From: Acidobacteriota bacterium
GTDB lineage: Bacteria; Acidobacteriota; UBA890; WLXD01
NCBI GenBank assembly: GCA_963666215.2
Contig: CAXWPL010000001.1
Span: 160,001-224,000 of the forward strand
Length of the DNA stretch: 64,000 nucleotides
Direction: 5' to 3'
The notes under the pieces were generated by a model. That model was not told the origin of the DNA. It did no database searches and saw only the letters and a list, made by a program, of their open reading frames with translations. Below are positions 16,046 through 41,036 of this stretch, in pieces (the stretch's first letter is position 1; every line of letters starts with the position of its first letter). The position numbers were made by a program, and so were the translations under genes.

Positions 16046-16177
16046 CCACCTCGCATTTGATATGCCCCTGGTTGCCGTTGCCAGGCGCTAACGGCCAATG
16101 CCCTTGTCGGCAGCTCGCCACCCACGGATCGTGATCCGTCGCCAAGTCCGCTCCTGCCCGAGCTGGTTCTGTGCTCG

Positions 16178-17485
16178 TCAACCACCATCTCGCACCCCGA
16201 GAACGCGTTCGAAAATGTGATCGACGTTGGCCAGCGAGGCCTCCAGATCGAACACCTCGGCAAGCTCGCGATCGTCCACGACCTCGCCGAGCTCCTCGTC
16301 GGCGGCCAGGACGTCGCGGAAGGCCTCGCCACTCTCCCAACACCGCATAGCGGAGCGCTGCACGATTGCGTACGCCTGCGTGCGGATCACGCCGCGCGCG
16401 ATCAAACGCTCCAACAAACGACTCGAGAACACGAGCCCATTGGTGAGTTCGAGATTGCGCTGCATGTTCTGCGGATACACGCGCATTCCCTCCACCACGC
16501 CCGCGAGTCGATGGGTCATGAAATCGACCAACAAGCACGCATCCGCGAGCGCTACACGCTCGGCCGACGAATGCGAGATATCGCGCTCATGCCACAGCGC
16601 GATGTTTTCGAAGCCTGTTCCCGCGTAGGCGCGCACCAAGCGAGCGAGCCCCACGAGGTTCTCGCACTTGATCGGATTGCGCTTGTGGGGCATCACCGAC
16701 GAGCCCTTCTGACCAGCCCCGAAAGGCTCCTCGACTTCTCGGATTTCAGTTCGTTGCAAGCCTCGGATCTCGGTTGCCACGCGCTCGATGGCCGCGGCGG
16801 CCAGAGCCAAGACCGATAGGAGCTCAGCGTGGCGGTCGCGTGGCACGACCTGAGTCGAAACCGGCTCGATCTGCAGGTCCAGAGTGCGGCAGGCGAGCTC
16901 TTCGACGCGAGGATCGACGGTGTTGTACGTGCCTACGGCGCCGGAGAACTGACCGAAGCTCACCATCTTGCGAGCCCGCTCGAGACGCTCGCGGCAGCGC
17001 CGGAACTCCTCGTACCAGCCGAGTACCTTGAGGCCGAAGGTAATCGGCTCGGCATGGATGCCGTGGCTGCGCCCAACCATCGGCAAGCTCTTGTGCTCCT
17101 GGGCCAGGGCTCGCAGCACCTCCAACAACCGATCCCACCCTACGAGGATCAGATCTATCGACCGCCGACAGCGCAGCGCCAGCGATGTATCGAGCACGTC
17201 CGACGACGTCAGTCCAAGGTGGAGGTAGCGCGCAGCGTCGCCCACCTGCTCTTCGATCGCCTCGAGAAAAGCGATGACGTCGTGGCCTGTACGGCGCTCG
17301 ATCTCGAGCACACGCTGCGCGTCGGGTGGCGCGGCTTGGCGAAGGGTCACGATCGCTTCGGCCGGTACTGTACCGAGCGTCGCCATGGCTTCGGCAGCCG
17401 CGAGCTCCACCTCGAGCCACGAGGCGTAAATCGCCGACTCGTCCCAAAGGCGAGCCATCTCCGATCGCGTGTAGCGGGAGATCAT
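16178..17485 (-). CDS. purB: Adenylosuccinate lyase
   Basis: MISRYT start, HDVIAF, GRSHGIHAEP, GSSVMPHKRNP. Confidence 0.96.
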   Translation of the reverse strand: MISRYTRSEMARLWDESAIYASWLEVELAAAEAMATLGTVPAEAIVTLRQAAPPDAQRVLEIERRTGHDVIAFLEAIEEQVGDAARYLHLGLTSSDVLDTSLALRCRRSIDLILVGWDRLLEVLRALAQEHKSLPMVGRSHGIHAEPITFGLKVLGWYEEFRRCRERLERARKMVSFGQFSGAVGTYNTVDPRVEELACRTLDLQIEPVSTQVVPRDRHAELLSVLALAAAAIERVATEIRGLQRTEIREVEEPFGAGQKGSSVMPHKRNPIKCENLVGLARLVRAYAGTGFENIALWHERDISHSSAERVALADACLLVDFMTHRLAGVVEGMRVYPQNMQRNLELTNGLVFSSRLLERLIARGVIRTQAYAIVQRSAMRCWESGEAFRDVLAADEELGEVVDDRELAEVFDLEASLANVDHIFERVLGVRDGG

Positions 17486-17814: not shown

Positions 17815-19170
17815 TCAGCCGGGAGACCTCATCGGCTGCGCCCGCGATACGTCGTGGAGCTCGGGCGCCGCGTCGAAGCCCAGCGACTCGAGACGACCGC
17901 TGAGATCCGAGGTGATGTCGGTGTCGGCGTCACGCCCACACAACACGCCTACCGACAACGCCGCCGGGTCGAAGAGCTCGCGACCCAGTGCCTGCACCTG
18001 CTCGAGGCTGACGGCGTCGATCTCGGAAAGGATCTCCTGTAACCCGATTGACCGGCCGAACGAGATCTGCTGGCGCGCCAGATTCGACATGCGGCTGGAG
18101 CTATTCTCGAGGCCGAGCATCATGCTGCCCTTGACGTGATCTTTCACACGCGTCAACTCTTCGCTCTCGATCGGCCGATCGCACAGCGCTTCGAGCTCGG
18201 AGGCGACCAATTCGAGCACCTTGCCCACCGCGTCGCGCCCGGTCGCCGCCGAAATCCACACGTAGCCGGCGTCCGCGTAAACGCCAATGCTGGAATAGAC
18301 GTTGTAGGCGAGCCCATGCTCCTCACGGATCACCTGGAACAAACGCGACGACACGCTGCCGCCGAGCAGCGTGTCGAGAAGGTGAAGGGCGTATCGGTCG
18401 GTGCCATTCGCCGAACGCCCGGGGCCTGCGACGTAGAGGTGCGCCTGTTCGAGATCATGGCGCGTGAGCAGCATGCAGTGGCGACTGGCAACCGGCGCCT
18501 CAGTCTTCTCAGGTGGCGGTGAGGCCTCGCGTCCTCCAAGAAGCCGATCCGCGAGGACCGTGAGCGCCTCGTGGTCGACGTTGCCGGCGGCGGCCACGAT
18601 CAGCTCAGAAGGACTAACGCTCTCGAGGTAGGCGCGCAGCTGTTCGGGGCGCAGAGCGGTAACGGTCTCGCGCGTCCCCAGGATGGGTCGGCCTAGCCCA
18701 TGTCGAGGCCAGAATCGCGCGGCGAAACGCTCGTAGAGAACCTCCTCTGGAGAGTCGTCAACGCCGGCGATCTCCTCCAGAATCACTCCACGCTCGATCT
18801 CCATATCGTTGCTTGCGAGGCGAGGATCGCCCACGAGATCGGCAAGAAGCTCGAACGCGCGTTGCAGGTTCTCGTCGAGGACCGTGGCGTAGTAGCAGGC
18901 GTGCTCCTTGGCGGTGAACGCATCCAGTTGCCCGCCCATGGCGTCGATCTCCAGCGCGATGTCGCGCGCCGAACGCGAGACCGTGCCCTTGAACAACATG
19001 TGCTCGAGGAAATGCGCAGTGCCGCCGAGCTCGGCCGCCTCGTCGCGCGACCCGCGGGTAATCCACAGGCCAAGAGAAACCGAACGCACCGCGGGCATGC
19101 GCTCGCTGACCACGGTGACACCGTTATCGAGCACAGTTGCACGGCCCACACGGGCGAATGTCTCGGTCAT
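17815..19170 (-). CDS. M16-family (pitrilysin-like) zinc peptidase
   Basis: GSRDE..G.AHFLEHMLFKGT (HXXEH) and SSRLFQVIREEHGLAY. Start set at MTETF. Confidence 0.92.
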   Translation of the reverse strand: MTETFARVGRATVLDNGVTVVSERMPAVRSVSLGLWITRGSRDEAAELGGTAHFLEHMLFKGTVSRSARDIALEIDAMGGQLDAFTAKEHACYYATVLDENLQRAFELLADLVGDPRLASNDMEIERGVILEEIAGVDDSPEEVLYERFAARFWPRHGLGRPILGTRETVTALRPEQLRAYLESVSPSELIVAAAGNVDHEALTVLADRLLGGREASPPPEKTEAPVASRHCMLLTRHDLEQAHLYVAGPGRSANGTDRYALHLLDTLLGGSVSSRLFQVIREEHGLAYNVYSSIGVYADAGYVWISAATGRDAVGKVLELVASELEALCDRPIESEELTRVKDHVKGSMMLGLENSSSRMSNLARQQISFGRSIGLQEILSEIDAVSLEQVQALGRELFDPAALSVGVLCGRDADTDITSDLSGRLESLGFDAAPELHDVSRAQPMRSPG

Positions 19171-19237
19171 GCCGGTGGGCGCTCTGACGTTAGCAATGCT
19201 CGGTGACTCACCACCGCCGCGTGTACAGCTGGTTGCG

Positions 19238-20155
19238 CTAGGCTTTCCCGAGTAACCACAGCATGATCGCCTTCTGCGCGTGCAGCCTGTTCTCCGCTTG
19301 ATCGAGCACCACCGAAATGTCGGAGTCGAGCACCTCGTCGGTAACCTCCTCGTTACGGTGTGCCGGCAAGCAATGCATGAAGCGTGCGCCGGCGTTGGCC
19401 TGCGACATGAGCTTGGTGTCCACCTGGAAGCCCTCGAATCGCGCCAGCTTCTCGGCCCCACCTTCCTGGCCCATCGAGACCCACGTGTCGGTGTAGACGG
19501 CGTCGGCACGGGACACCGCAACCATGGGATCGGTGCCGACTTCTATCGTGGTGCCGGCAGCGGAGGCCATCTCCTGGGCGCGCGCCACAATCCCGGCGTC
19601 GGCGGGGTGCTCGGCGGGCGTGGCGACCGCGACGTTCACTCCGAACAGCGGCCCGGCGAGCATCAGCGAGTGCGTCATGTTGTTGCCGTCGCCCACGTAG
19701 GCGAGCTTGAATCCACCGAGATCGCCGAACTGCTCGCGCAGCGTGAGGTAGTCGGCCATGACCTGGCACGGGTGCAGCAGGTCCGAGAGTCCGTTGATCA
19801 CCGGCACGGTGGCATTCGCCGCCAGCTGCTTGATGTCGTCGTGAGCGAAGACCCGCGCCATCATGATGTCGAGGTAGCGGGAAAGCACGCGCGCGGAGTC
19901 GGGAATGGTCTCGCCACGCCCGAGCTGCAAATCGCTCGACGACAAGAACAACCCCGTGCCGCCCAGTTGGCTGATGCCGACCTCGAACGAAACGCGCGTC
20001 CGAGTGGACGGCTTCTGGAAAATCATGCCGAGCGTGAGACCGGCACAGGCATCGCGGAACGATTCCGGCCGTTGCTTGACGTCGGAGGCCAGTCCCAGCA
20101 GCCAGGCCAAGTGGTCGGCGTCGTGATCGGCGACGGAAATGAAGTGGTCGAGCAT
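19238..20155 (-). CDS. arcB: Ornithine carbamoyltransferase (catabolic by context)
   Basis: PSTRTR, HPCQ, SMG and HCLP motifs. Adjacent to carbamate kinase. Confidence 0.92.
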   Translation of the reverse strand: MLDHFISVADHDADHLAWLLGLASDVKQRPESFRDACAGLTLGMIFQKPSTRTRVSFEVGISQLGGTGLFLSSSDLQLGRGETIPDSARVLSRYLDIMMARVFAHDDIKQLAANATVPVINGLSDLLHPCQVMADYLTLREQFGDLGGFKLAYVGDGNNMTHSLMLAGPLFGVNVAVATPAEHPADAGIVARAQEMASAAGTTIEVGTDPMVAVSRADAVYTDTWVSMGQEGGAEKLARFEGFQVDTKLMSQANAGARFMHCLPAHRNEEVTDEVLDSDISVVLDQAENRLHAQKAIMLWLLGKA

Positions 20156-20267
20156 CGTTCGGTCTCCTGCGGCTGGCTACGTCAGCCTTGACGGGTTTGC
20201 TTGGCGGCTTCGAATAATCTCGAAGAGTGTTGGCCGGGGACGGTCCCCGTTGCCGGATAGCTGAGCT

Positions 20268-21413
20268 TCAACGTTCGGGCTTCGTCTCGAGAGCCCGAGA
20301 GTCGTCGGAATGCACTCGGGTGCCAGCATCGCCGACCATGGCCTCGCTGAGGCAGCTTGCCGAGGTGATCAGAACCTCGCTGCGGGTTCGCTCGGCGAAG
20401 TCGGCGGCGGCCGAGATCTTCGGGCCCATGCTGCCGGGCGGGAATTCACCCGCTGCCACGCGCGCACGCGCCTCTGAAACACCCAGGTGCTGCATGCGGC
20501 GCTGACGTTTCGTCCCGAAGTCGGAGTAAACCGCGTCGACAGCCGTCAGCGAAATCAGCAAACCAGCGCCCACTGCTTCGCCCACGAGCGCGGCCGTGTG
20601 GTCCTTGTCAACAACGCCGTCGACGGCGCGCCACGCTGGCGCGTGGAAACTGCCGCTATCTCCTGACATGCCCGTGTGAACTTCGGAATCGGCGCTCGTT
20701 CGCAGCGGTACCCGCCGCCGAACACCGGCGAGCACACCGCTCGGCAGCTCGAGCCCTTCGCCCGAGCGCACCAACGGAATGCCGCCACCGCCACCGGCGA
20801 TCACAACCGCGCCAATCTCGACGAGCTGTCGAACGAGGTCGGCGTTGAGCAATCGAAGCGGGCGCGGCGACGGCACGACTCTTCGCCAGCCCCGTCCAGC
20901 ATCGGAGATCATCTTCCAACCCCAGTCCTGCTGCAGCGTCGCCGCCTGCTCTTTTGAATAGAAGGGGCCGATCGGCTTGGTTGGCGCCCTGAGCCCGCTG
21001 TCATCGGCGTCGACTTCCACGAGGCTCAACACCGCGGCCACCGACCGTTCGGCACCCCGGCCAGCAAGCGCGTTGCGGACCCCGAGCTCGATGAGGAAGC
21101 CCATGCTTCCCTGTGTAGCCCCGACGTGCCCGGCCAGGGACATCGGCTCGACCTCCGTGGCCGAGTAGCGGTCGCGCAGCAAAGCAGCGCCGACCTGCGG
21201 GCCGTTGCCGTGCACCAGCACTAGCTTGGTCTCGGTGCCCAGCGCATCAAAAACCCTCTCGACGGCTTCACGGGCAAGCTGCGCTTGGAACAACTCCGAC
21301 TCGTTGCCGCGCGGACTGAGCGCGTTGCCGCCGAACGCCACGACCACCGGGCCGCCAGCCGCGGCGGCCACGCACCCGCCCACGCTCGGATGCAGAGCGC
21401 CTGCGTCACGCAC
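20268..21413 (-). CDS. arcC: Carbamate kinase
   Basis: AFGGNAL, HGNGPQVG, PTKPIGPFY, WRRVVPSP, GGGGIP, DKD, GSMGPK. Start uncertain. Confidence 0.93.
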   Translation of the reverse strand: MRDAGALHPSVGGCVAAAAGGPVVVAFGGNALSPRGNESELFQAQLAREAVERVFDALGTETKLVLVHGNGPQVGAALLRDRYSATEVEPMSLAGHVGATQGSMGFLIELGVRNALAGRGAERSVAAVLSLVEVDADDSGLRAPTKPIGPFYSKEQAATLQQDWGWKMISDAGRGWRRVVPSPRPLRLLNADLVRQLVEIGAVVIAGGGGGIPLVRSGEGLELPSGVLAGVRRRVPLRTSADSEVHTGMSGDSGSFHAPAWRAVDGVVDKDHTAALVGEAVGAGLLISLTAVDAVYSDFGTKRQRRMQHLGVSEARARVAAGEFPPGSMGPKISAAADFAERTRSEVLITSASCLSEAMVGDAGTRVHSDDSRALETKPER

Positions 21414-21438
21414 GCCGATGCTTCAGCTGTCCGGGCTC

Positions 21439-22765
21439 TCAGCCGGCCGACTCGACGAACTTCGCCAGCGGCTCGGACAGCGTCGGGCTGCCGATCTCCT
21501 GCAATTCGTAGGTAACGCGCAGCGCCGGCACGTCGATGTTCACAAGAGCGCGAAGGTCGATCGGCGTTGCGATGACCACGAGGTCGCACGGGGTAGCGTT
21601 GATCGTCGCCTCGAGATCGCGGATCTGCTCGTCGCCGTATCCCATCGCCGGGATCACCACCTCGGTCTGCGGGTACTGCTCGAAGGTTTCCGCGATGCTT
21701 CCGACGGCGTAGGGATGAGGATCCACGAGCTCCGCGGCCCCGTGCTTCATCGCCGCCATGACCCCGGCACCGTACTCCATCTCCCCATGAGTGAGCGTCG
21801 GTCCGTCCTCGATGACGAGCACCCGCTTACCCGAAATCTGCTCGGCTCCCTCGACAAACAGCGGCGAAGCACCGTCGACGACTGTCGCACCTGGATTGAC
21901 CTCGCGAATGTTGTAGCGAACCTCGTCGATGCCTTCTGGGGCCGCGGTATCGATCTTGTTGATCACCACCACGTCGGCGCGACGCAGGTTGGCCTCACCG
22001 GGGTGGTGGGTCATTTCATGGCCTGGCCGGTGAGGATCGACGACGACGATCTCGAGGTCCGACTTCACCAGTGGAAAGTCGTTGTTGCCGCCGTCCCAAA
22101 CGATGATATCGGCCTCTTTCTCGGCCTCGGCGACGATCGCTCCGTAGTCGACACCGGCGTAAACAACAACGCCTCGGCGAATGTGGGGCTCGTACTCCTC
22201 GCGTTCCTCGATGGTGCACTCGTGGGTGTTCAAGTCCTCGAGGGTCGCAAAGCGCTGAACCCTCTGCTTGACCAGATCGCCGTACGGCATCGGATGGCGA
22301 ATCGCCACCACCCGCCTTACCCATCCCCTGCAAGATCTCCACGACACGCCGTGTCGTCTGGCTCTTGCCGCAGCCGGTGCGGACGGCGCAAACCGACACG
22401 ACGGGCACCTGCGACCCAACCATGCCGTGCTTGGCGCCGAGCATCCGATAGTCGGCGCCAGCGGCGATGACACGCGAGCCCAGATGCATTACGTCCTCGT
22501 GGGAGACGTCGCTGTAGGCGAAGACAGCCTGGTCGACATCGTGATCCTCAATCAACTGCTCGAGGTCGTCCTCGGCGTAGATCGGGATACCGTCGGGGTA
22601 CAGATCGCCGCACAACTCGGCAGGATACGTGCGGCCGTCGATGTCGGGAATCTGCGTAGCGGTGAACGCGACGACTTCGTAGCGCTCATTGTCGCGGAAG
22701 TAGACGTTGAAGTTGTGAAAATCGCGACCGGCAGCACCCAGAATCAATACGCGTGAGCGTTCCAT
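21439..22765 (-). CDS. arcE: P-loop protein of the cDPGS-like/COG2403 family, probable arginine synthetase; 1-nt frameshift near 22315
   Basis: GAAGRDFHNFN, VVAFTATQIP and AVRTGCGKSQT lie in one frame; RHPMPYGDL, TIEEREEYEPH, WDGGNND, EDGPTLTHG and PAMGY in the next. Removing one G from AAGGCGG restores GKRVVAIRHPMP. Confidence 0.8.
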
Positions 22766-22884
22766 AGAGAAAGAGTCCCCTTGAGCGATGAAGTGACGGA
22801 GTCCGGACCGCGTCGTCAGGGGAACACGGAACCCGCCGCGTTCGGGACACATGCGGCAGAAGGCACGGGAACGCGTCGCGTACC

Positions 22885-22914
22885 ACGTTAGCACCGGCCG
22901 AGAAATGGGGTCAA
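22885..22914 (-). promoter_or_regulatory. Candidate sigma70 promoter of the arcE-arcC-arcB operon
   Basis: TTGACC-18 bp-TAACGT with extended TG. Confidence 0.5.
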
Positions 22915-22961
22915 ACGAGCCCTCCGATCGCTGAGATCGTCTCGGCATATGTCTCGATGGC

Positions 22962-23522
22962 CTATTCGAGACGGTGTACGAGCCCACCGGGCCAGACAGC
23001 ATAGCGTCCCAGGCAATCAGCCGCACCACGCCGGAACCACGCACGCGCCTGAGCGTCGACGAGCAACCCGGCGACGCCGGCAATCGGCTCGAGCTGACGC
23101 GCTGCGCCGCCAGGGCCAACCACGAGGGAGATTCGCACGGCGACACCGCGACCCAAGATTGTCGTGCTCGGCGTCGAGGTGAGCGGAGGTATCGGGAAAT
23201 GGCGCAGCGCCGCGTCCAGCGCCGGCGGTGAGGCAGAGGTCAGCACGCCCGCAGCTCCGGCGCCGTTACCGTTCAGCAGCTCGACCGCCGCTGCGGTCGG
23301 GACCAGTCGCGCATCATCGCCAATCAGGCGCTCGATCTCCAGAAGAGTGGCGCCGCAAAGGGCCCGGGCTTGCGCGCCGTCAGCGTCGTAAGCGCCGGCT
23401 TCGTAGGCAACAAACGTCTCCGCCAGCAACATTGCCAGCAACACAGACATCGTGGCGGTGGCGGCCACAACCGTCAGTAGGGCGGCTCCCGAGTGCGTGC
23501 AATCACGGGCAGTGTCAGCCAC
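22962..23522 (-). CDS. PilX-like minor pilin
   Basis: SG|AALLTVV hydrophobic N-terminus without Glu5. Last gene of the minor pilin run. Confidence 0.55.
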   Translation of the reverse strand: MADTARDCTHSGAALLTVVAATATMSVLLAMLLAETFVAYEAGAYDADGAQARALCGATLLEIERLIGDDARLVPTAAAVELLNGNGAGAAGVLTSASPPALDAALRHFPIPPLTSTPSTTILGRGVAVRISLVVGPGGAARQLEPIAGVAGLLVDAQARAWFRRGAADCLGRYAVWPGGLVHRLE

Positions 23523-24366
23523 CGATGCGAACCGATCTCCGTACGACGCGTAGTGTCTTCAGCGACCCTGCGGACGTCTCCGACGTGCCCGGTAGGCCGA
23601 GCGTCATGGAGATCTCCAAGTCCAGCAGACGGGCTGGAACGTCGCCGCTGACCTGTAGAACCTGCATCGACCAGCTCGAAAACCCGTCCGCGAGCGGCTG
23701 CCACGGGCCCGCGCCGTTCCGACGACGCAGGCTGAGTGTCGCCAGCGGGCCCACGCTCACGCCTTCAACGACCGCGTATTCCCGCAGCACCAGCGGCTGC
23801 AGCGCCCGCGGCACTCCCCATGCGTCGATCGAGCTTTGCTCGTCACCCCAGGTAATGAGCAGCCTCGACAGGCCGTCGATCGCTACGACTCGTCCCGCCG
23901 GAGCCGGGCTCGCGACCGGGTGACCCGGTTGTCCGAGAGCCGCCACCATGCCGACGACGACGACCTGCGGCAAGGGACGAGCGGTGAAGAGGTTCGCGCC
24001 GGCCAGCGCAACCTCGAGCGTCGGGCCGTCTGGGACCAGCAGTCGCAGCGACTGTCCGCCCGCGGCTACAACCGGGACCCGAGTGCCCTCGAACGTGATC
24101 GAGGCACTCCCCTCCAATCCGTCACCAGCTCGCTCCACGTCGGCAACGACGGCAGCGAGCGTCGCACGAGCGAGCGAGGTAGCAGCCAGCCGCCTCTCCA
24201 ACGTCGCAGCGGCCGAGCCGCCGCCCACGACGAGAGGCAGAATCGCCGCCGCGAGCAGCCCGGTGCACGCCGTCGCCACCAGCAACTCGAGCAGGCTCGT
24301 CCCGTGCACGCGCTCGTCGGCACACGCCACTGACGCCACCGCGCCGCCCGTTTCAGATTCGCCCAC
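23515..24366 (-). CDS. PilW-like minor pilin
   Basis: HG|TSLLELLVA prepilin site and DVERAG motif. GTG start next to the upstream stop. Confidence 0.65.
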   Translation of the reverse strand: MGESETGGAVASVACADERVHGTSLLELLVATACTGLLAAAILPLVVGGGSAAATLERRLAATSLARATLAAVVADVERAGDGLEGSASITFEGTRVPVVAAGGQSLRLLVPDGPTLEVALAGANLFTARPLPQVVVVGMVAALGQPGHPVASPAPAGRVVAIDGLSRLLITWGDEQSSIDAWGVPRALQPLVLREYAVVEGVSVGPLATLSLRRRNGAGPWQPLADGFSSWSMQVLQVSGDVPARLLDLEISMTLGLPGTSETSAGSLKTLRVVRRSVRIGG

Positions 24367-24367
24367 C

Positions 24368-24841
24368 TCAGCGCGCCACCAAGAGCACCGCGTGAGCAGC
24401 CGTGGCGCCCGGCCCAGTCGGCTCGGAAATACCCGAGGCACGTGGTCCGCACGCAGCCTCAACACGGAACCAGAGGAGCACACCCTGCTGCACGAGCTCG
24501 ACCCGCCGCCAGCAACGCGGGGCTCGGCAGTCGAGTTCCTCCGTCGGCGAGACTGCGGCCACGTCGTCGACTGTGGCGAGGGCGCCGTCAGGGCCAGCTG
24601 CCCCGATCGGCTGCCAACCAACAGGATAGACAAGCGCGGGATGCGCGGCAGCGGCGGCGCTCTGCGCGCCTTCGAGAGCGCAGGCGGCATCCTCAGCGCG
24701 CGCAACGCGCTCCACGGTGGCGGTCAACACCGAGCCGATCGCGATCAGTCCCACACTGAGCAGCGCCAGGGCGACAACCACCTCGAGCAGGGAGAAGCCG
24801 CCGCGTTCGAGGTGCGGTGACGCCAACCTCCATCGGGCCAT
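24368..24841 (-). CDS. PilV-like minor pilin
   Basis: RGG|FSLLEVVVALALLSVG class III signal. Start uncertain. Confidence 0.7.
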   Translation of the reverse strand: MARWRLASPHLERGGFSLLEVVVALALLSVGLIAIGSVLTATVERVARAEDAACALEGAQSAAAAAHPALVYPVGWQPIGAAGPDGALATVDDVAAVSPTEELDCRAPRCWRRVELVQQGVLLWFRVEAACGPRASGISEPTGPGATAAHAVLLVAR

Positions 24842-25059
24842 CGCCCGTTGCAACGAGGCGCTCGGACCCGTTCGGGTCGGAGGTCGAGACGATGGGCGGT
24901 GGCGGCGAGGCCAAGTTCGATCGGCAACGGGATTGCGCATGACAATCCCTTTAGATGGTCACCGCCCGTCGCTTTCCTGGGCGCTGGGATGGCGTCGGAG
25001 AATCAATCATCAAACCGAGCGCAAACACCGCCGCGTCGATGCTCCTGCTCCAGGCCGTG

Positions 25060-25599
25060 CTAGTAGCCGTAGGCCCACATCGAGACTTCGACCCGTCCCG
25101 TCGCTCGATTGAACTCGACCTCGAAGGTGTCGCCGATCGAGTTGCTCAGGTACACCGCGTCGGTGGCGGCGGTGCTGTCGCCGAGCGTACCGTCGGGATG
25201 GAAGAACAACTCGGCGCCGGGAACGTCGATGGGCCCGCCAGAAGGTCCGCCGCTGAACGTAACCCCGAAGGGCAACCCTCGCGGGACAGCGTCGAGCAGC
25301 GTCCCGGTGGCGGCGTCGCCCTCGAATAGGCTGAAGGTCCCCGCGCCCACGTTGAACGCGATCGAGAATTCATCGCTCTGGCTGACGGCGCGCATGCGTT
25401 GCAGCTGTATGGTCGTGGCGATCTCTTGTGCGGCTGAGCGCGTGCGATAGCGATCGAGCCACGACTGCATGGCTGGCAGGCCGATCACTACGAGAATTCC
25501 GATGACCGCCATGGTCACGATCAACTCGATCAAGGAAAAGCCGCGCTGGCCGCCGCCAAGCGTGGAGCTCCACTTCGTCCGGGCGCGAAGCACGCTCAT
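25060..25599 (-). CDS. FimT/FimU (GspH-like) minor pilin
   Basis: QRG|FSLIELIVTMAVIGIL, RMRAVSQ, FFHPDG, TGRVEV. Confidence 0.85.
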   Translation of the reverse strand: MSVLRARTKWSSTLGGGQRGFSLIELIVTMAVIGILVVIGLPAMQSWLDRYRTRSAAQEIATTIQLQRMRAVSQSDEFSIAFNVGAGTFSLFEGDAATGTLLDAVPRGLPFGVTFSGGPSGGPIDVPGAELFFHPDGTLGDSTAATDAVYLSNSIGDTFEVEFNRATGRVEVSMWAYGY

Positions 25600-25971
25600 G
25601 GTACCGCCTCCTATGGATCATCCACCCACGCTGTGGAGGCGCGGCATACGACGTCACCGGTCGTATCTGCCTCCCAGCCTCATACTCGAGGCGAGTGTAG
25701 GCAGCGGCATGCAACGCTCCGCAGGCAAAAGCAACCCTCGGCAACACCTTGCCGGACAAGGGCAGAAGCCCGCGGTCGAGGCGGGCTAGCCCCGGACGAG
25801 TCGGGCAGATCGTGGAAGGTCCCGGCCGATTACGGAGACGCGCACCCAGCGAGGGCCTGCCAAGGACAGCGCGAACTCGCGACCGTCGTATCGAGGCAAG
25901 CGACGGCCAGGCGAGGCCAAGAGGTCAGCCGTTGAGATGCCCCGACGCCGGTTCGCGTCGCGTCGCTGGAC

Positions 25972-26754
25972 TCAAACGACGGGGGCGAATGTGGCGACGT
26001 ACCAGCGCAGAATCTCGGGACCGTAGGCGTCGACGATGACGGCGCCCATTGCCAGGAAGGTCCCGAAGGGCAGCGCGTACTCCCAACCGCGGCGACTGAG
26101 CTTGATCACCAGCACGCCAATCAGGCTACCGGCCAGCGAGCCAATGAAGATCGTCGTGAGCGCACCCTTCCAGCCAAGGAAGGCACCGATAAGCAACATC
26201 ATCTTGATGTCACCCATCCCCATCCCCTCGCGTCCTCGCATCTTGAGGTAGAGGTACGCGACAGCGTAGAGCACTCCCCCTCCAAGTAACGCGCCCAGGA
26301 TCGACTCGAGTGGCACTCGCCGCGGATCGGCGAACGAAAGGGCCAGCCCCAGGAGGGTACCCGGGAGCGTGATGATGTTGGGCAGGATTCGGTGGTCAAT
26401 GTCGATGAGCGACAAGACCAGCATCGTGTAGCCAAAGAGCGTGCTTGACGCCGCGCTCCATCCGGGCCCCCAGCGCCACAGAGCGAAACCGAGGATCAAC
26501 CCACCGGCGAGCTCAACGAGCGGATAGCGCACGGATATGGCTATGCCGCAGTCGCGGCACTTGCCGCGCAGCGCGAGCCAGGAAAACAGCGGCAGATTGC
26601 GGTACCAGGGGATCGGCGCCTTGCAGCTCGGGCACGCGGACCGCGGCACGATGTTGGCACCCAGCGGAACACGATGAATCACCACGTTGAGGAAAGAGCC
26701 GAACAGCAGGCCGAACAGGAAGCCTGTGCCCACGAGTACGAGGCCCGGGCTCAA
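25972..26754 (-). CDS. pilD: Prepilin peptidase/N-methyltransferase
   Basis: GSFLNVVIHR, two CxxC motifs, RYPLVEL, DIDHRILP, GMGMGDIK, PFG. Confidence 0.95.
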   Translation of the reverse strand: MSPGLVLVGTGFLFGLLFGSFLNVVIHRVPLGANIVPRSACPSCKAPIPWYRNLPLFSWLALRGKCRDCGIAISVRYPLVELAGGLILGFALWRWGPGWSAASSTLFGYTMLVLSLIDIDHRILPNIITLPGTLLGLALSFADPRRVPLESILGALLGGGVLYAVAYLYLKMRGREGMGMGDIKMMLLIGAFLGWKGALTTIFIGSLAGSLIGVLVIKLSRRGWEYALPFGTFLAMGAVIVDAYGPEILRWYVATFAPVV

Positions 26755-38285: not shown

Positions 38286-39328
38286 TGTGAGTTCTAGGTA
38301 GGTTGTTCACGAACTCACCCCTGAGAGCCGAGCGATCGGCGGTGTCATGCCGATGCCGGCGTGGGGGCGGTGACGATTGTAGTGGTTGAGCCAGGGCCGT
38401 AGAGCTCGAGTACGTCGAGCTGAGGTCTGGTAGCAGGTGCCGTAGGCCCACTGCTCCTTGAGTGTGCGGATGAAGCGTTCGGCTTTGCCGTTGGTTCTGG
38501 GGGTGTAGGGCCGGGTGTAAATGTGCCGGATCTCGAGTTGATGGCATAGGCGATTGAAGCGCTTCGAGACGTAGCCAGGCCCGTTGTCTGTCATCACTCG
38601 GCGCACCGCTACTCCCATCGAAGCGAAGTGCTCGACGGCTCGCTGCAGGAACGCTGTGCAGGTGTGTTGGTCTTCGGCGGGCAGCACTTCGACGTACGCC
38701 ACCCGAGAGTGATCGTCGATAGCGACGTGGGCGTTCTCCCAGCCGACGCCGTAGGCCCGCTTGGAGCGGTCGCCGTGGATGCGGTGTCCAGGTCGCCGGA
38801 TACGGGCCAGTTTCTTCGTATCCAGGTGCAGTAGGTCACCGGGGTGCTCGTACTCGTAGCGAACGATCTCGGGCTTGGGCTCGAGCGCATCAAGCTTGGC
38901 GAGTCCGAGCCGCTTCAGCCACGCCGAGACGGTCGAGCGCGGCACAGCCAACCTTCGGCTGATCTGCCAGGCCGTCAGTCGCCGCCGACGTAGCTTGTCG
39001 ATCTGCCTCACAACTCCAGCGCTTGTTGCGTGCGGACAGCACGTCGGCCGGCTTGATCGATCGAGCAGCCCGGCCTCACCTTCTCGCTCGTATCTATCCA
39101 GCCACTTGTAAACCGTTCGAGCCGACACGCCGAGCGCCGCCGCCGTTTCCGTCACGGGCTCCGCCCGCTCCCGGACTCGGCGGACCATCTCTCGGCGTAT
39201 ATACGGCATCGTGCGGGCGTTACCATGCAGCTGCATCGGGCGCTCCTTCTGAGGTCGTGGAGTCTTTTGAACAACCCCATTGATCTCAGAAGTGAGCCCC
39301 GATGTGAACAACCTACTTAGAAAACACA
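38286..39328 (-). mobile_element. IS481-family element, 1043 bp
   Basis: TGT..ACA ends, 25-bp TIRs with 3 mismatches, and a 6-bp TSD ACTAGG (38280-38285 and 39329-39334; NCTAGN). Confidence 0.95.
38307..39236 (-). CDS. IS481-family transposase
   Basis: MQLHGNAR start, HTH, PGDLLHLDTK, IDDHSR, TDNG, TNGKAERF. Confidence 0.93.
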   Translation of the reverse strand: MQLHGNARTMPYIRREMVRRVRERAEPVTETAAALGVSARTVYKWLDRYEREGEAGLLDRSSRPTCCPHATSAGVVRQIDKLRRRRLTAWQISRRLAVPRSTVSAWLKRLGLAKLDALEPKPEIVRYEYEHPGDLLHLDTKKLARIRRPGHRIHGDRSKRAYGVGWENAHVAIDDHSRVAYVEVLPAEDQHTCTAFLQRAVEHFASMGVAVRRVMTDNGPGYVSKRFNRLCHQLEIRHIYTRPYTPRTNGKAERFIRTLKEQWAYGTCYQTSARRTRALRPWLNHYNRHRPHAGIGMTPPIARLSGVSS

Positions 39329-41036
39329 ACTAGGTGGCCCGTCAGCGCGGCCTTGATGGCGATATTCGCGGTCTCGGCGTCGCGGATCTCACCCACCAGG
39401 ATGATGTTCGGATCCTGCCGCAGGAATGCGCGCAGCGCCGCCGCAAAGTTGAGTCCCACCTGCTCGTTGATCTGCACCTGGTTGATGCCGACCAGGTTGA
39501 ATTCCACCGGGTCCTCGGCGGTCATGATGTTGGTACCGATCTTGTTGATGTTCGAGAGCGCCGAGTAGAGCGTGTTCGTCTTTCCCGAACCGGTCGGTCC
39601 GGTAACCAACACGATGCCGAACGGAAGCTCGATCGCCGCTCTGAAGGCATCGAGTGACGATTTCTCGAATCCCAGGTCGGCGAGATTGAGCTTCAGGCCC
39701 TCGGGGTCGAGAAGACGCATGACGATCTTCTCCCCCCAGATCGTCGGCACGGTCGAGACGCGTAAGTCGAGCTCGCGCGTACGGTCGTCCAGCTTCACAC
39801 GAATCTTGATGCGACCATCCTGTGGCCTACGCCGCTCGGAAATGTCGAGCTCACTCATGATCTTGATGCGAGACGCGATTGCCCCCTGCATGGACTTCGG
39901 CGGTCTCATCACCTCGTACAGCACGCCGTCGATGCGGTAGCGGACGCGCTGAATTTTCTCGTACGGCTCGATGTGGATATCCGAGGCGTCGCGCCGCAGC
40001 GCGTCGGTGAGCAACAAGTTGACGAGCTTGATGACCGGCGCATCACCACCTGCTTGCGACAGCGACTCGAGGTCGATGTCCTCCTCTTCGACGATGTGGA
40101 GCTCACCGGGCCCGCGAATTTCGGCCTCGATGTCCTCCATCATCTGGCGCATCTTGGCTTCTTGCTCGTCGCCGTAGCACCGCCCCATCGCCTCGGTAAT
40201 CGCGCGCTCCGAGGCCACCAGAGGTTCGACCCGTCGGCCAGTGGCGAACTCGATGTCGTCGATGGCCACCACGTCGGTGGGATCGACCATAGCCAGACTG
40301 ACCGACTGAGAGTCGGCGGCGAGCGGCATGACCAGATAGCGCCGCGCCATGTCCTGGGGCACCAGGATCAGGATCTCGGGAGGTATCTTCGCGGCCTCTA
40401 CATTCGCTGCTGGCACGCCGAAGTGTGTCGACAGGAGCCCGATAAGGTCTTGTTCGCTGATCAGCTCGAGAACAACAAGGAGGTGTCCTAGCCGCTCGCC
40501 CGTCTCCTGCTGCATTTGCAGGGCACGCTCGAGATCCTGTTCGGAGACGAGTCCGCTCTCGATGACGATGCGCCCGAGACGCGCGCTCGAGTGTCGCCGA
40601 ACCGGATTGTTCCCCGAGCCGGAAGTGGTCGCAGTTCGCTCGCTGGAAGCCACGTCTCGCCTATTCTCATATCCCGACGTTCCGCCGACCGACTATCGGA
40701 GGCGCAACACGCCGAGAATCCCCTCGCCCCTGTTGGACGGACACAAGGGGCCAGAAGCCGCCGACACACCGCGCGAACGGACGCCGCCTGACCTCTAGCC
40801 GCTCAATCGAGATCAGCTTACCGAGACAGCCCTACACCACAAAGCACTAATTTCTTCTTCAAAGCGTGCAAATACATCGCCCTACATAGCATAGCGTCTT
40901 CGTGCCTATACACAACTGCTTGTGGCCATGCCCGACAGCCCTGGCCCACAAGTGGACCGAGGACGCAGAAAAATGGGCCGCGAGCGCCCCGCGCTCACGG
41001 CCCATGCAGAGACCTGAAATTCGATCGTGCTGGTCG

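Follow-up and report, generated by a model that had tools for sequence, protein, structure and literature searches.

An arginine synthetase gene cluster in an acidobacterium, with a lead gene, arcE, that was probably inactivated recently by a one-base insertion

The window analysed here is a stretch of 64,000 nucleotides (nt) from an Acidobacteriota bacterium (GenBank assembly GCA_963666215.2, contig CAXWPL010000001.1, positions 160,001 to 224,000), and our subject is a group of three co-directional genes on its minus strand, at 19238-22765. They encode, in this order, a P-loop protein of the arginine synthetase (ArcE) family, a carbamate kinase (CK, gene arcC) and an ornithine transcarbamylase (OTCase, gene arcB). 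A preliminary description of this DNA, made from the letters alone, had recognized this gene set and had noted that the P-loop gene occupies the slot of the arginine deiminase gene arcA beside arcC and arcB; our analysis bears out both observations. The end coordinate given there, 22914, falls about 150 nt outside the arcE start, which we place at the ATG at 22765 according to the lengths of the homologs (435-446 amino acids, aa). The arcE frame is interrupted by one extra base after the AAG codon of Lys150, and skipping a base near 22315 yields a protein of 441 aa, referred to below as P0001. We suggest that arcE is here probably a recent pseudogene of a pathway known from elsewhere.

At the site of the insertion the gene reads GGT AAG G CGG GTG GTG GCG ATT CGC CAT CCG. 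All of the relatives inspected at this position (10/10) encode G-K-x-V-V-x-[IV]-R-H-P in a single frame, and the window has the same length plus one base. The window gene therefore possesses no intact reading frame for the whole of ArcE: the shift falls 13 residues past the Walker A loop and parts Walker A from the rest of the enzyme, while the frame of the N-terminal piece meets its stop, at 22016, only after approximately 100 out-of-frame codons. The two frames fall in the open reading frames (ORFs) 22016-23146 and 21439-22473. The N-terminal piece shares 75-77% identity with the N-terminal parts of orthologs from the same family of bacteria, and the C-terminal piece (coding 22314-21442, 291 aa) is 79% identical to the same orthologs and gives a partial match to Pfam cobW (E 9e-6).

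Alignment of public contigs to positions 19200-22900 drew on four runs from four studies (X1, X4, X5 and X9). X1 and X5 are each represented by one contig that spans the whole interval, with 0 and 2 differences, respectively; the single contig of X4 covers 19756-22900 and shows 2 differences identical to those of X5, and the single contig of X9 (depth 3.5) carries 5 differences and, at 21783, has lost 1 nt. The extra base is kept in the contigs of all four runs, with no indel at 22311-22316. As the contigs differ from one another by 0-5 base changes, at least three haplotypes carry the insertion across the runs, which makes a one-off assembly error unlikely. The preliminary description had treated the frameshift as something to be corrected, a view that its recurrence in four of four runs, from four studies, does not support. 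Among these populations arcE shows three base changes, one of them silent and two leading to replacements (H253Y and E215K); in CK there is a single replacement (M104R), and the only change in OTCase is silent.

P0001 retains 54 of the 54 residues that are invariant or nearly invariant in the family. In a quick tree of arcE, which contains neither a cyclic 2,3-diphosphoglycerate synthetase (cDPGS) nor a TK2200 outgroup, it forms a clade with the same-family orthologs (SH-aLRT 95), and its terminal branch measures 0.14 compared with 0.17 and 0.13 for its sisters. The retention of conserved residues and the terminal branch that is not lengthened suggest that the loss of arcE, if it is one, was recent.

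The assignment of the lead gene to the arginine synthetase family, as opposed to true cDPGS, is supported by full-length comparisons with archaeal proteins. P0001 is 48% identical to P0433 from Hyperthermus butylicus (435 aa, a single one-residue gap, E 2e-148) and 43% identical to P0469 from Pyrodictium occultum. Both genera are named among those with arcE homologs in the Discussion of the paper on the Thermococcus kodakarensis enzyme TK2200 (PMC11032458), and we assume that P0433 and P0469 are the homologs counted there for Hyperthermus and Pyrodictium. The text of the same paper states that arcE homologs have low similarity to cDPGS and that some are annotated as putative GTPases. When compared with P0001 and with P0433, solved cDPGS structures reach no more than 29-34 bits in either case, and the match to P0001 (29.3 bits, E 3.7e-6) is restricted to aa 204-329. 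The preliminary description had proposed membership in the family named ArcE rather than in true cDPGS, and the contrast between 43-48% identity to the Hyperthermus and Pyrodictium proteins and 29 bits to cDPGS agrees with it.

Structure comparison was carried out with the AlphaFold model of an intact ortholog, P0010 (78% identical to the window protein, pLDDT 94.1). Foldseek returned cDPGS 8oru as the first match (E 1.6e-18, 16% identity) and Aquifex aeolicus LpxK as the next, including 4ehy at E 2e-8; 4EHY is also the structure on which the comparison with the TK2200 model in PMC11032458 was based, by superposition. The P-loop site (Walker A GCGKS) is located in the N-terminal piece of the window gene, and the LpxK-like core was seen on the P0010 model. 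No Pfam or NCBIfam model covers the lead gene, which gives only partial P-loop matches (cobW E 1.5e-5, LpxK E 0.0011). A word-indexed search revealed at least 8000 homologs at E <= 0.001, the best of which are 78-80% identical to P0001 and 428-465 aa long (435-446 aa for those used to place the start); where they bear names at all, these are "predicted GTPase", "GTPase" or [quoted passage not shown]. An HMMER scan with P0010 yielded 3670 cluster representatives at E <= 0.001, of which 643 also passed E <= 1e-30, and the P0010 cluster search returned "putative GTPase" clusters only. One of the representatives from the scan, P0274 from a Thermoproteota metagenome-assembled genome, was used to seed a further search, which retrieved proteins from H. 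butylicus, P. occultum and Ignisphaera aggregans, with no Thermococcus among the matches. It was thus rightly anticipated that standard annotation would miss this gene, as no Pfam or NCBIfam model names the family and its relatives are labelled "predicted GTPase" or "cDPGS".

Table 1. Features of the arcE-arcC-arcB locus and its flanks (window coordinates)
Feature	Position	Strand	Basis or remark
arcE, whole gene	22765-21439	-	441 aa when read through, = P0001
arcE N piece, aa 1-150, with Walker A RTGCGKSQ at aa 129-136	22316..22765	-	ORF, read-through translation
Frameshift site, AAG-G-CGG	22311..22316	-	codon-level comparison with 10 relatives
arcE C piece, aa 151-441 and TGA stop	21439..22314	-	remaining P-loop domain and C-terminal domains
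Carbamate kinase (arcC)	20268..21413	-	Pfam AA_kinase, NCBIfam carbamate kinase models, alignment A1
Carbamate kinase 39-aa in-frame insert, aa 222-260	20634..20750	-	alignments
OTCase (arcB/argF), short PRK00779 type	19238..20155	-	305 aa; Pfam and NCBIfam
M16-family peptidase	17815..19170	-	Pfam Peptidase_M16, M16_C; start position; synteny
Upstream pseudopilin-like ORFs and prepilin peptidase	22962..26754	-	Pfam N_methyl, A24_N_bact, Peptidase_A24; synteny

The second gene encodes a CK of 381 aa when read from the GTG at 21413; an alternative GTG start 14 codons downstream corresponds to the database call P0135 (367 aa). The protein matches Pfam AA_kinase (E 1e-23) and remains below the curated NCBIfam cut-offs for carbamate kinase (TIGR00746: 266.9 vs 358.25; NF009007: 262.6 vs 266), because an insert of 39 aa, which separates the GGGGIP loop from the xDKD motif, splits the match into two stretches. 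This insert keeps the reading frame, a shorter version of it is present in the four closest database homologs (P0136, P0137, P0138 and P0140; 56-61% identity, 349-373 aa), and the motifs GGNAL, HGNGPQVG, GGGG and DKD are invariant in alignment A1; we therefore regard it, judging from these alignments, as a trait of the lineage and not as damage. A pair of compensating frameshifts was considered as its origin and rejected, given that it is in frame and recurs in shorter form in those homologs. The OTCase exceeds its family cut-offs (NF001986: 404.9 bits vs 306; TIGR00658: 378.4 vs 280.85), with both domains matched (Pfam OTCace_N and OTCace). It is the only OTCase above the family cut-off in the genome, and the CK of the cluster is the only carbamate kinase.

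A spacer of 25-67 nt separates arcE from CK; that between CK and OTCase measures 112 nt, and the M16 peptidase gene follows OTCase after 67 nt. A scan for promoters and terminators gave no promoter-like site; terminator-like sites numbered 3, where chance alone would give 2.1, and none of them falls between the cluster genes on the coding strand.

To place the cluster among related bacteria we compared the arcE loci of relatives, 15 in number and including 6 kb on either side. In four relatives (G003, G011, G024 and G012) arcE is followed directly by the M16 peptidase gene and then by purB, and its left flank has the same pseudopilin and prepilin peptidase genes as the window. CK or OTCase stands beside arcE in 4 of the 15 loci (G030, G034, G020 and G032), and in none of the six loci from the same family. 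According to genome-wide matches, the full order arcE-arcC-arcB is found in G031, G034 and G036, which belong to other families of the phylum, and arcE adjoins CK or OTCase in five more genomes (G030, G020, G032, G035 and G021). The window OTCase shares 52-59% identity with the short OTCases that occur within or close to such arcE clusters, but only 35-37% with the OTCase of 334 aa that belongs to its own family and order; no full-length CK of the relatives exceeds 47% identity to the window CK; and the window arcE is 78% identical to the same-family orthologs, with which it groups in the quick tree. Because four relatives have arcE directly before the M16 peptidase gene, the simplest reading is that in this lineage an arcC-arcB pair was inserted between a resident, vertically inherited arcE and the M16 peptidase gene. 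Around the pair, a search for the borders of a mobile element returned only short repeats at chance level, and there is no anomaly in GC content, which is 0.65-0.68 throughout; with neither repeat borders nor a GC shift, a recent horizontal transfer is not supported.

Some of the relatives' loci deserve comment in their own right. In G012, which belongs to the same order, the arcE gene (G012:C6:214772-216083) is broken near aa 80 and aa 245, either by an independent disruption or through assembly error. The arcE matches G031:C165, G036:C9 and G022:C249 each contain one TAG. In three relatives from the same family an arcA-like gene lies directly beside CK (G003:C2:831108-833268, G001:C2:34920-37068 and G005:C27:5140-7291); with 476-483 bits these arcA-like genes narrowly miss the cut-off of 489, and G003, having arcE in addition, would possess both routes.

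We examined arginine metabolism in the whole genome (4.65 Mb, 5 contigs, 91.7% complete) by six-frame family searches, which include the window. The best match to arcA has 24.5 bits vs the cut-off of 489, and the best model match to arcD 94.9 bits vs 591; neither gene was found in a Pfam scan of 44 ORFs of the window (41 of 60 passing a filter on GC content at third codon positions, from 77 ORFs of at least 200 aa, plus 3 shorter ones). The statement that the window holds neither arcA nor arcD is in accord with these results, and the genome-wide search for arcA that was proposed along with it returned nothing above the cut-off. The genes argG (479 bits) and argH (290 bits) are adjacent on contig 5, and carB is represented by a match of 1489 bits. 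Since all three are present, the suggestion that the route might run in reverse and bypass ArgG/ArgH is unnecessary. Family searches of the genome found no argC or argJ; a search for argC in 20 relatives of the family and order likewise came back empty for 19, and this acidobacterial order seems to lack it. The apparent absence of argC, with OTCase, ArgG, ArgH and carbamoyl phosphate synthetase (CPS) nevertheless kept, points to salvage of ornithine rather than de novo synthesis, a pattern that frames the purpose of ArcE in these bacteria.

Other routes from arginine are plausible, because the genome contains four matches to the arginase/agmatinase family and a DDAH-like or small amidinotransferase-fold protein of 279 aa (L002 1237-2073, minus strand, equivalent to G000:C5:742422-743258). 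The latter scores 66.8 bits with Pfam ADI, below every curated equivalog cut-off, and adjoins a 4-hydroxyproline epimerase; it is a possible alternative source of citrulline. One of the arginase-family matches (G000:C5:891241-892119) has one TAG within it.

Taken together, we interpret the locus as an arginine synthetase cluster (arcE, arcC and arcB) with an arcE that was probably inactivated recently, i.e. as a known pathway that is probably being lost in this lineage. By analogy with the characterized enzyme, the reaction predicted for this member of the family is Arg + ADP + Pi <-> Cit + NH3 + ATP. As the extra base shifts the frame after codon 150, a full-length enzyme is not expected: judging from the sequence, ribosomes would produce an N-terminal stub of 150 aa followed by approximately 100 out-of-frame residues. 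Consequently the gain of two ATP per arginine envisaged in the preliminary description is doubtful for the gene as it stands. The CK and OTCase still appear to be intact. The OTCase would most likely supply ArgG/ArgH, so that arginine could be made from ornithine and from carbamoyl phosphate provided by CPS, and CK would still be able to turn carbamoyl phosphate into ATP during the breakdown of citrulline. It is plausible that arcE is dispensable, as it was not found in some relatives (14 of 40, against 26 of 40 with a match), lies in three pieces in G012, and other arginine routes are plausible in this genome.

A number of points weigh against a recent loss. The genome may have been assembled from the sample behind X1, or possibly from those behind X5 and X9; contigs drop rare variants, and an intact minority allele could escape notice; the base-change evidence in arcE amounts to three changes only; and the X9 deletion at 21783, known from a single contig of depth 3.5, could be erroneous. 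Beyond the single insertion the gene shows no decay, and the C-terminal frame of 291 codons is open, as in a working gene. Membership in the ArcE family is supported by way of named intermediates and the text of the 2024 paper, and the part of the genome that is missing could contain a second arcE, arcA or OTCase.

These points lend some weight to an operon that is fully functional and gains two ATP per arginine, the frameshift being either an error of assembly or of sequencing, or else one of two coexisting alleles, the other of them intact. Minority alleles would indeed be invisible in contigs, and the complete set of 54 conserved residues, the branch that is not lengthened, the 75-79% identity of both arcE pieces to intact orthologs, and an intact and adjacent CK and OTCase are all what one would expect of it. 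We nevertheless consider it unlikely, as the extra base recurs in four of four runs from four studies and on at least three haplotypes, and the identical error is not to be expected in four independent assemblies. The break could also be bypassed: ribosomes might shift by +1 at AAG-G, or translation might restart on the GTG codons of V152/V153 and give a two-piece enzyme. Between 22473 and 22016 both frames are open, GTG codons and the purine-rich AAGGCGG occur directly at the site, and the sequence around it is well preserved. If a fixed insertion were decoded in this way, the preservation of 54/54 residues on at least three haplotypes would reflect continued selection, and the synthesis of ArcE would be conditional in this lineage. 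The chances of this appear slim: the shift is not conserved, 10/10 relatives being in frame and the three-piece arcE of G012 being broken at positions other than that of the window; the site has neither a slippery run nor a stop or rare codon; the split would part Walker A from the rest of one P-loop domain; and the N-terminal piece would bear about 100 out-of-frame residues. A programmed frameshift was judged unlikely on similar grounds, namely the intact frame of 10/10 relatives and the lack of a slippery motif.

Two further alternatives concern what the protein does, or did, rather than whether it is broken. The labels on some public records would make it a true cDPGS, and the NCBI names of its relatives as well as the best structural match of the ortholog model (cDPGS 8oru, E 1.6e-18) can be cited in favour; yet the sequence match of 29 bits extends over aa 204-329 only, identity in the structural alignment is 16%, the named arcE-type archaeal proteins are 43-48% identical over their full length, and arcC or arcB is linked to the gene here and in 8 relatives, so we attach practically no credence to these labels. 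That ArcE worked biosynthetically, converting citrulline, NH3 and ATP to arginine in place of ArgG/ArgH, is suggested by the reversibility of the enzyme, which is reported to be able to sustain T. kodakarensis on citrulline (PMC11032458), and the OTCase of the cluster is of the short type. We find this very improbable, as argG and argH are present and adjacent, and the Discussion of the same paper reads ArcE as catabolic in genomes that contain both. The most probable reading of the locus is thus still that of an arcE that has recently become a pseudogene.

Elsewhere in the window we found several features that are independent of the cluster. At 203-1463 on the plus strand, a transposase of the Mutator family is distributed over two overlapping ORFs (profile positions 32-169 and 187-377), and is a further frameshifted gene, or possibly one with a programmed shift. 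An IS481-type transposase (38310-39329, in 38310-40653 on the minus strand) abuts an ORF for a PilB/T2SSE-type ATPase, which matches only positions 3-240 of the 370 of its profile so that the insertion element looks to have truncated the ATPase gene. The minus-strand region 7746-17485, downstream of the cluster, contains a run of purine biosynthesis genes with purN-, purM-, purF-, purL-, purQ- and purB-type domains together with a tyrS-type gene.

The arginine synthetase pathway, comprising ArcE (TK2200), ArcB and ArcC, was described in T. kodakarensis (Michimori, Yokooji and Atomi 2024, PMC11032458). A search of full-text literature for "arginine synthetase" with "Acidobacteria" returned this paper only, and its Discussion already lists arcE homologs across bacterial phyla including Acidobacteria; the introduction of PMC13260591 also describes ArcE homologs as widespread and as complementing ArcA. 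The claim of novelty for a bacterial pathway of this kind is accordingly weak, and with the enzyme and the three-gene pathway published in 2024, our analysis adds little to the knowledge of arginine synthetase itself. Its interest lies rather in the warning that a real frameshift gives against deducing a two-ATP pathway from gene content alone, and in the picture, if the order of events is as we suggest, of an operon under construction, where arcC and arcB came to stand beside a resident arcE and the lead gene then broke.

Among known systems, the cDPGS of Methanothermus fervidus (PDB 8ork, 8oru) shares with the lead protein a distant overall fold and a common annotation label, and differs in sequence (29 bits, 16% identity) and in genomic context. 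The classical arginine deiminase pathway (arcA-arcB-arcC) has the same lower half, OTCase and carbamate kinase, whereas here there is no arcA and no arcD above the cut-offs. The arcE-arcC-arcB clusters of G031, G034 and G036 have a gene order identical to that of the window, and their arcE genes, 68-70% identical to that of the window, are in frame, although there is one TAG within the match in both G031 and G036. Compared with these clusters, the window CK is 37-39% identical over the whole protein (42-45% in the N-terminal part) and the OTCase 52-59%, and in the window the arcC-arcB pair would have joined a resident arcE. The pathway of T. kodakarensis resembles the cluster in its three enzyme families, including a P-loop protein of about 440 aa with an LpxK-like core that is remote from cDPGS, as well as in the linkage of its gene to arcC and arcB and in the lack of arcA. 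It differs in that the copy described here is bacterial, with a one-base insertion in arcE and a 39-aa insert in CK, and in that T. kodakarensis is without argG, argH and CPS, whereas the acidobacterial genome has all three.

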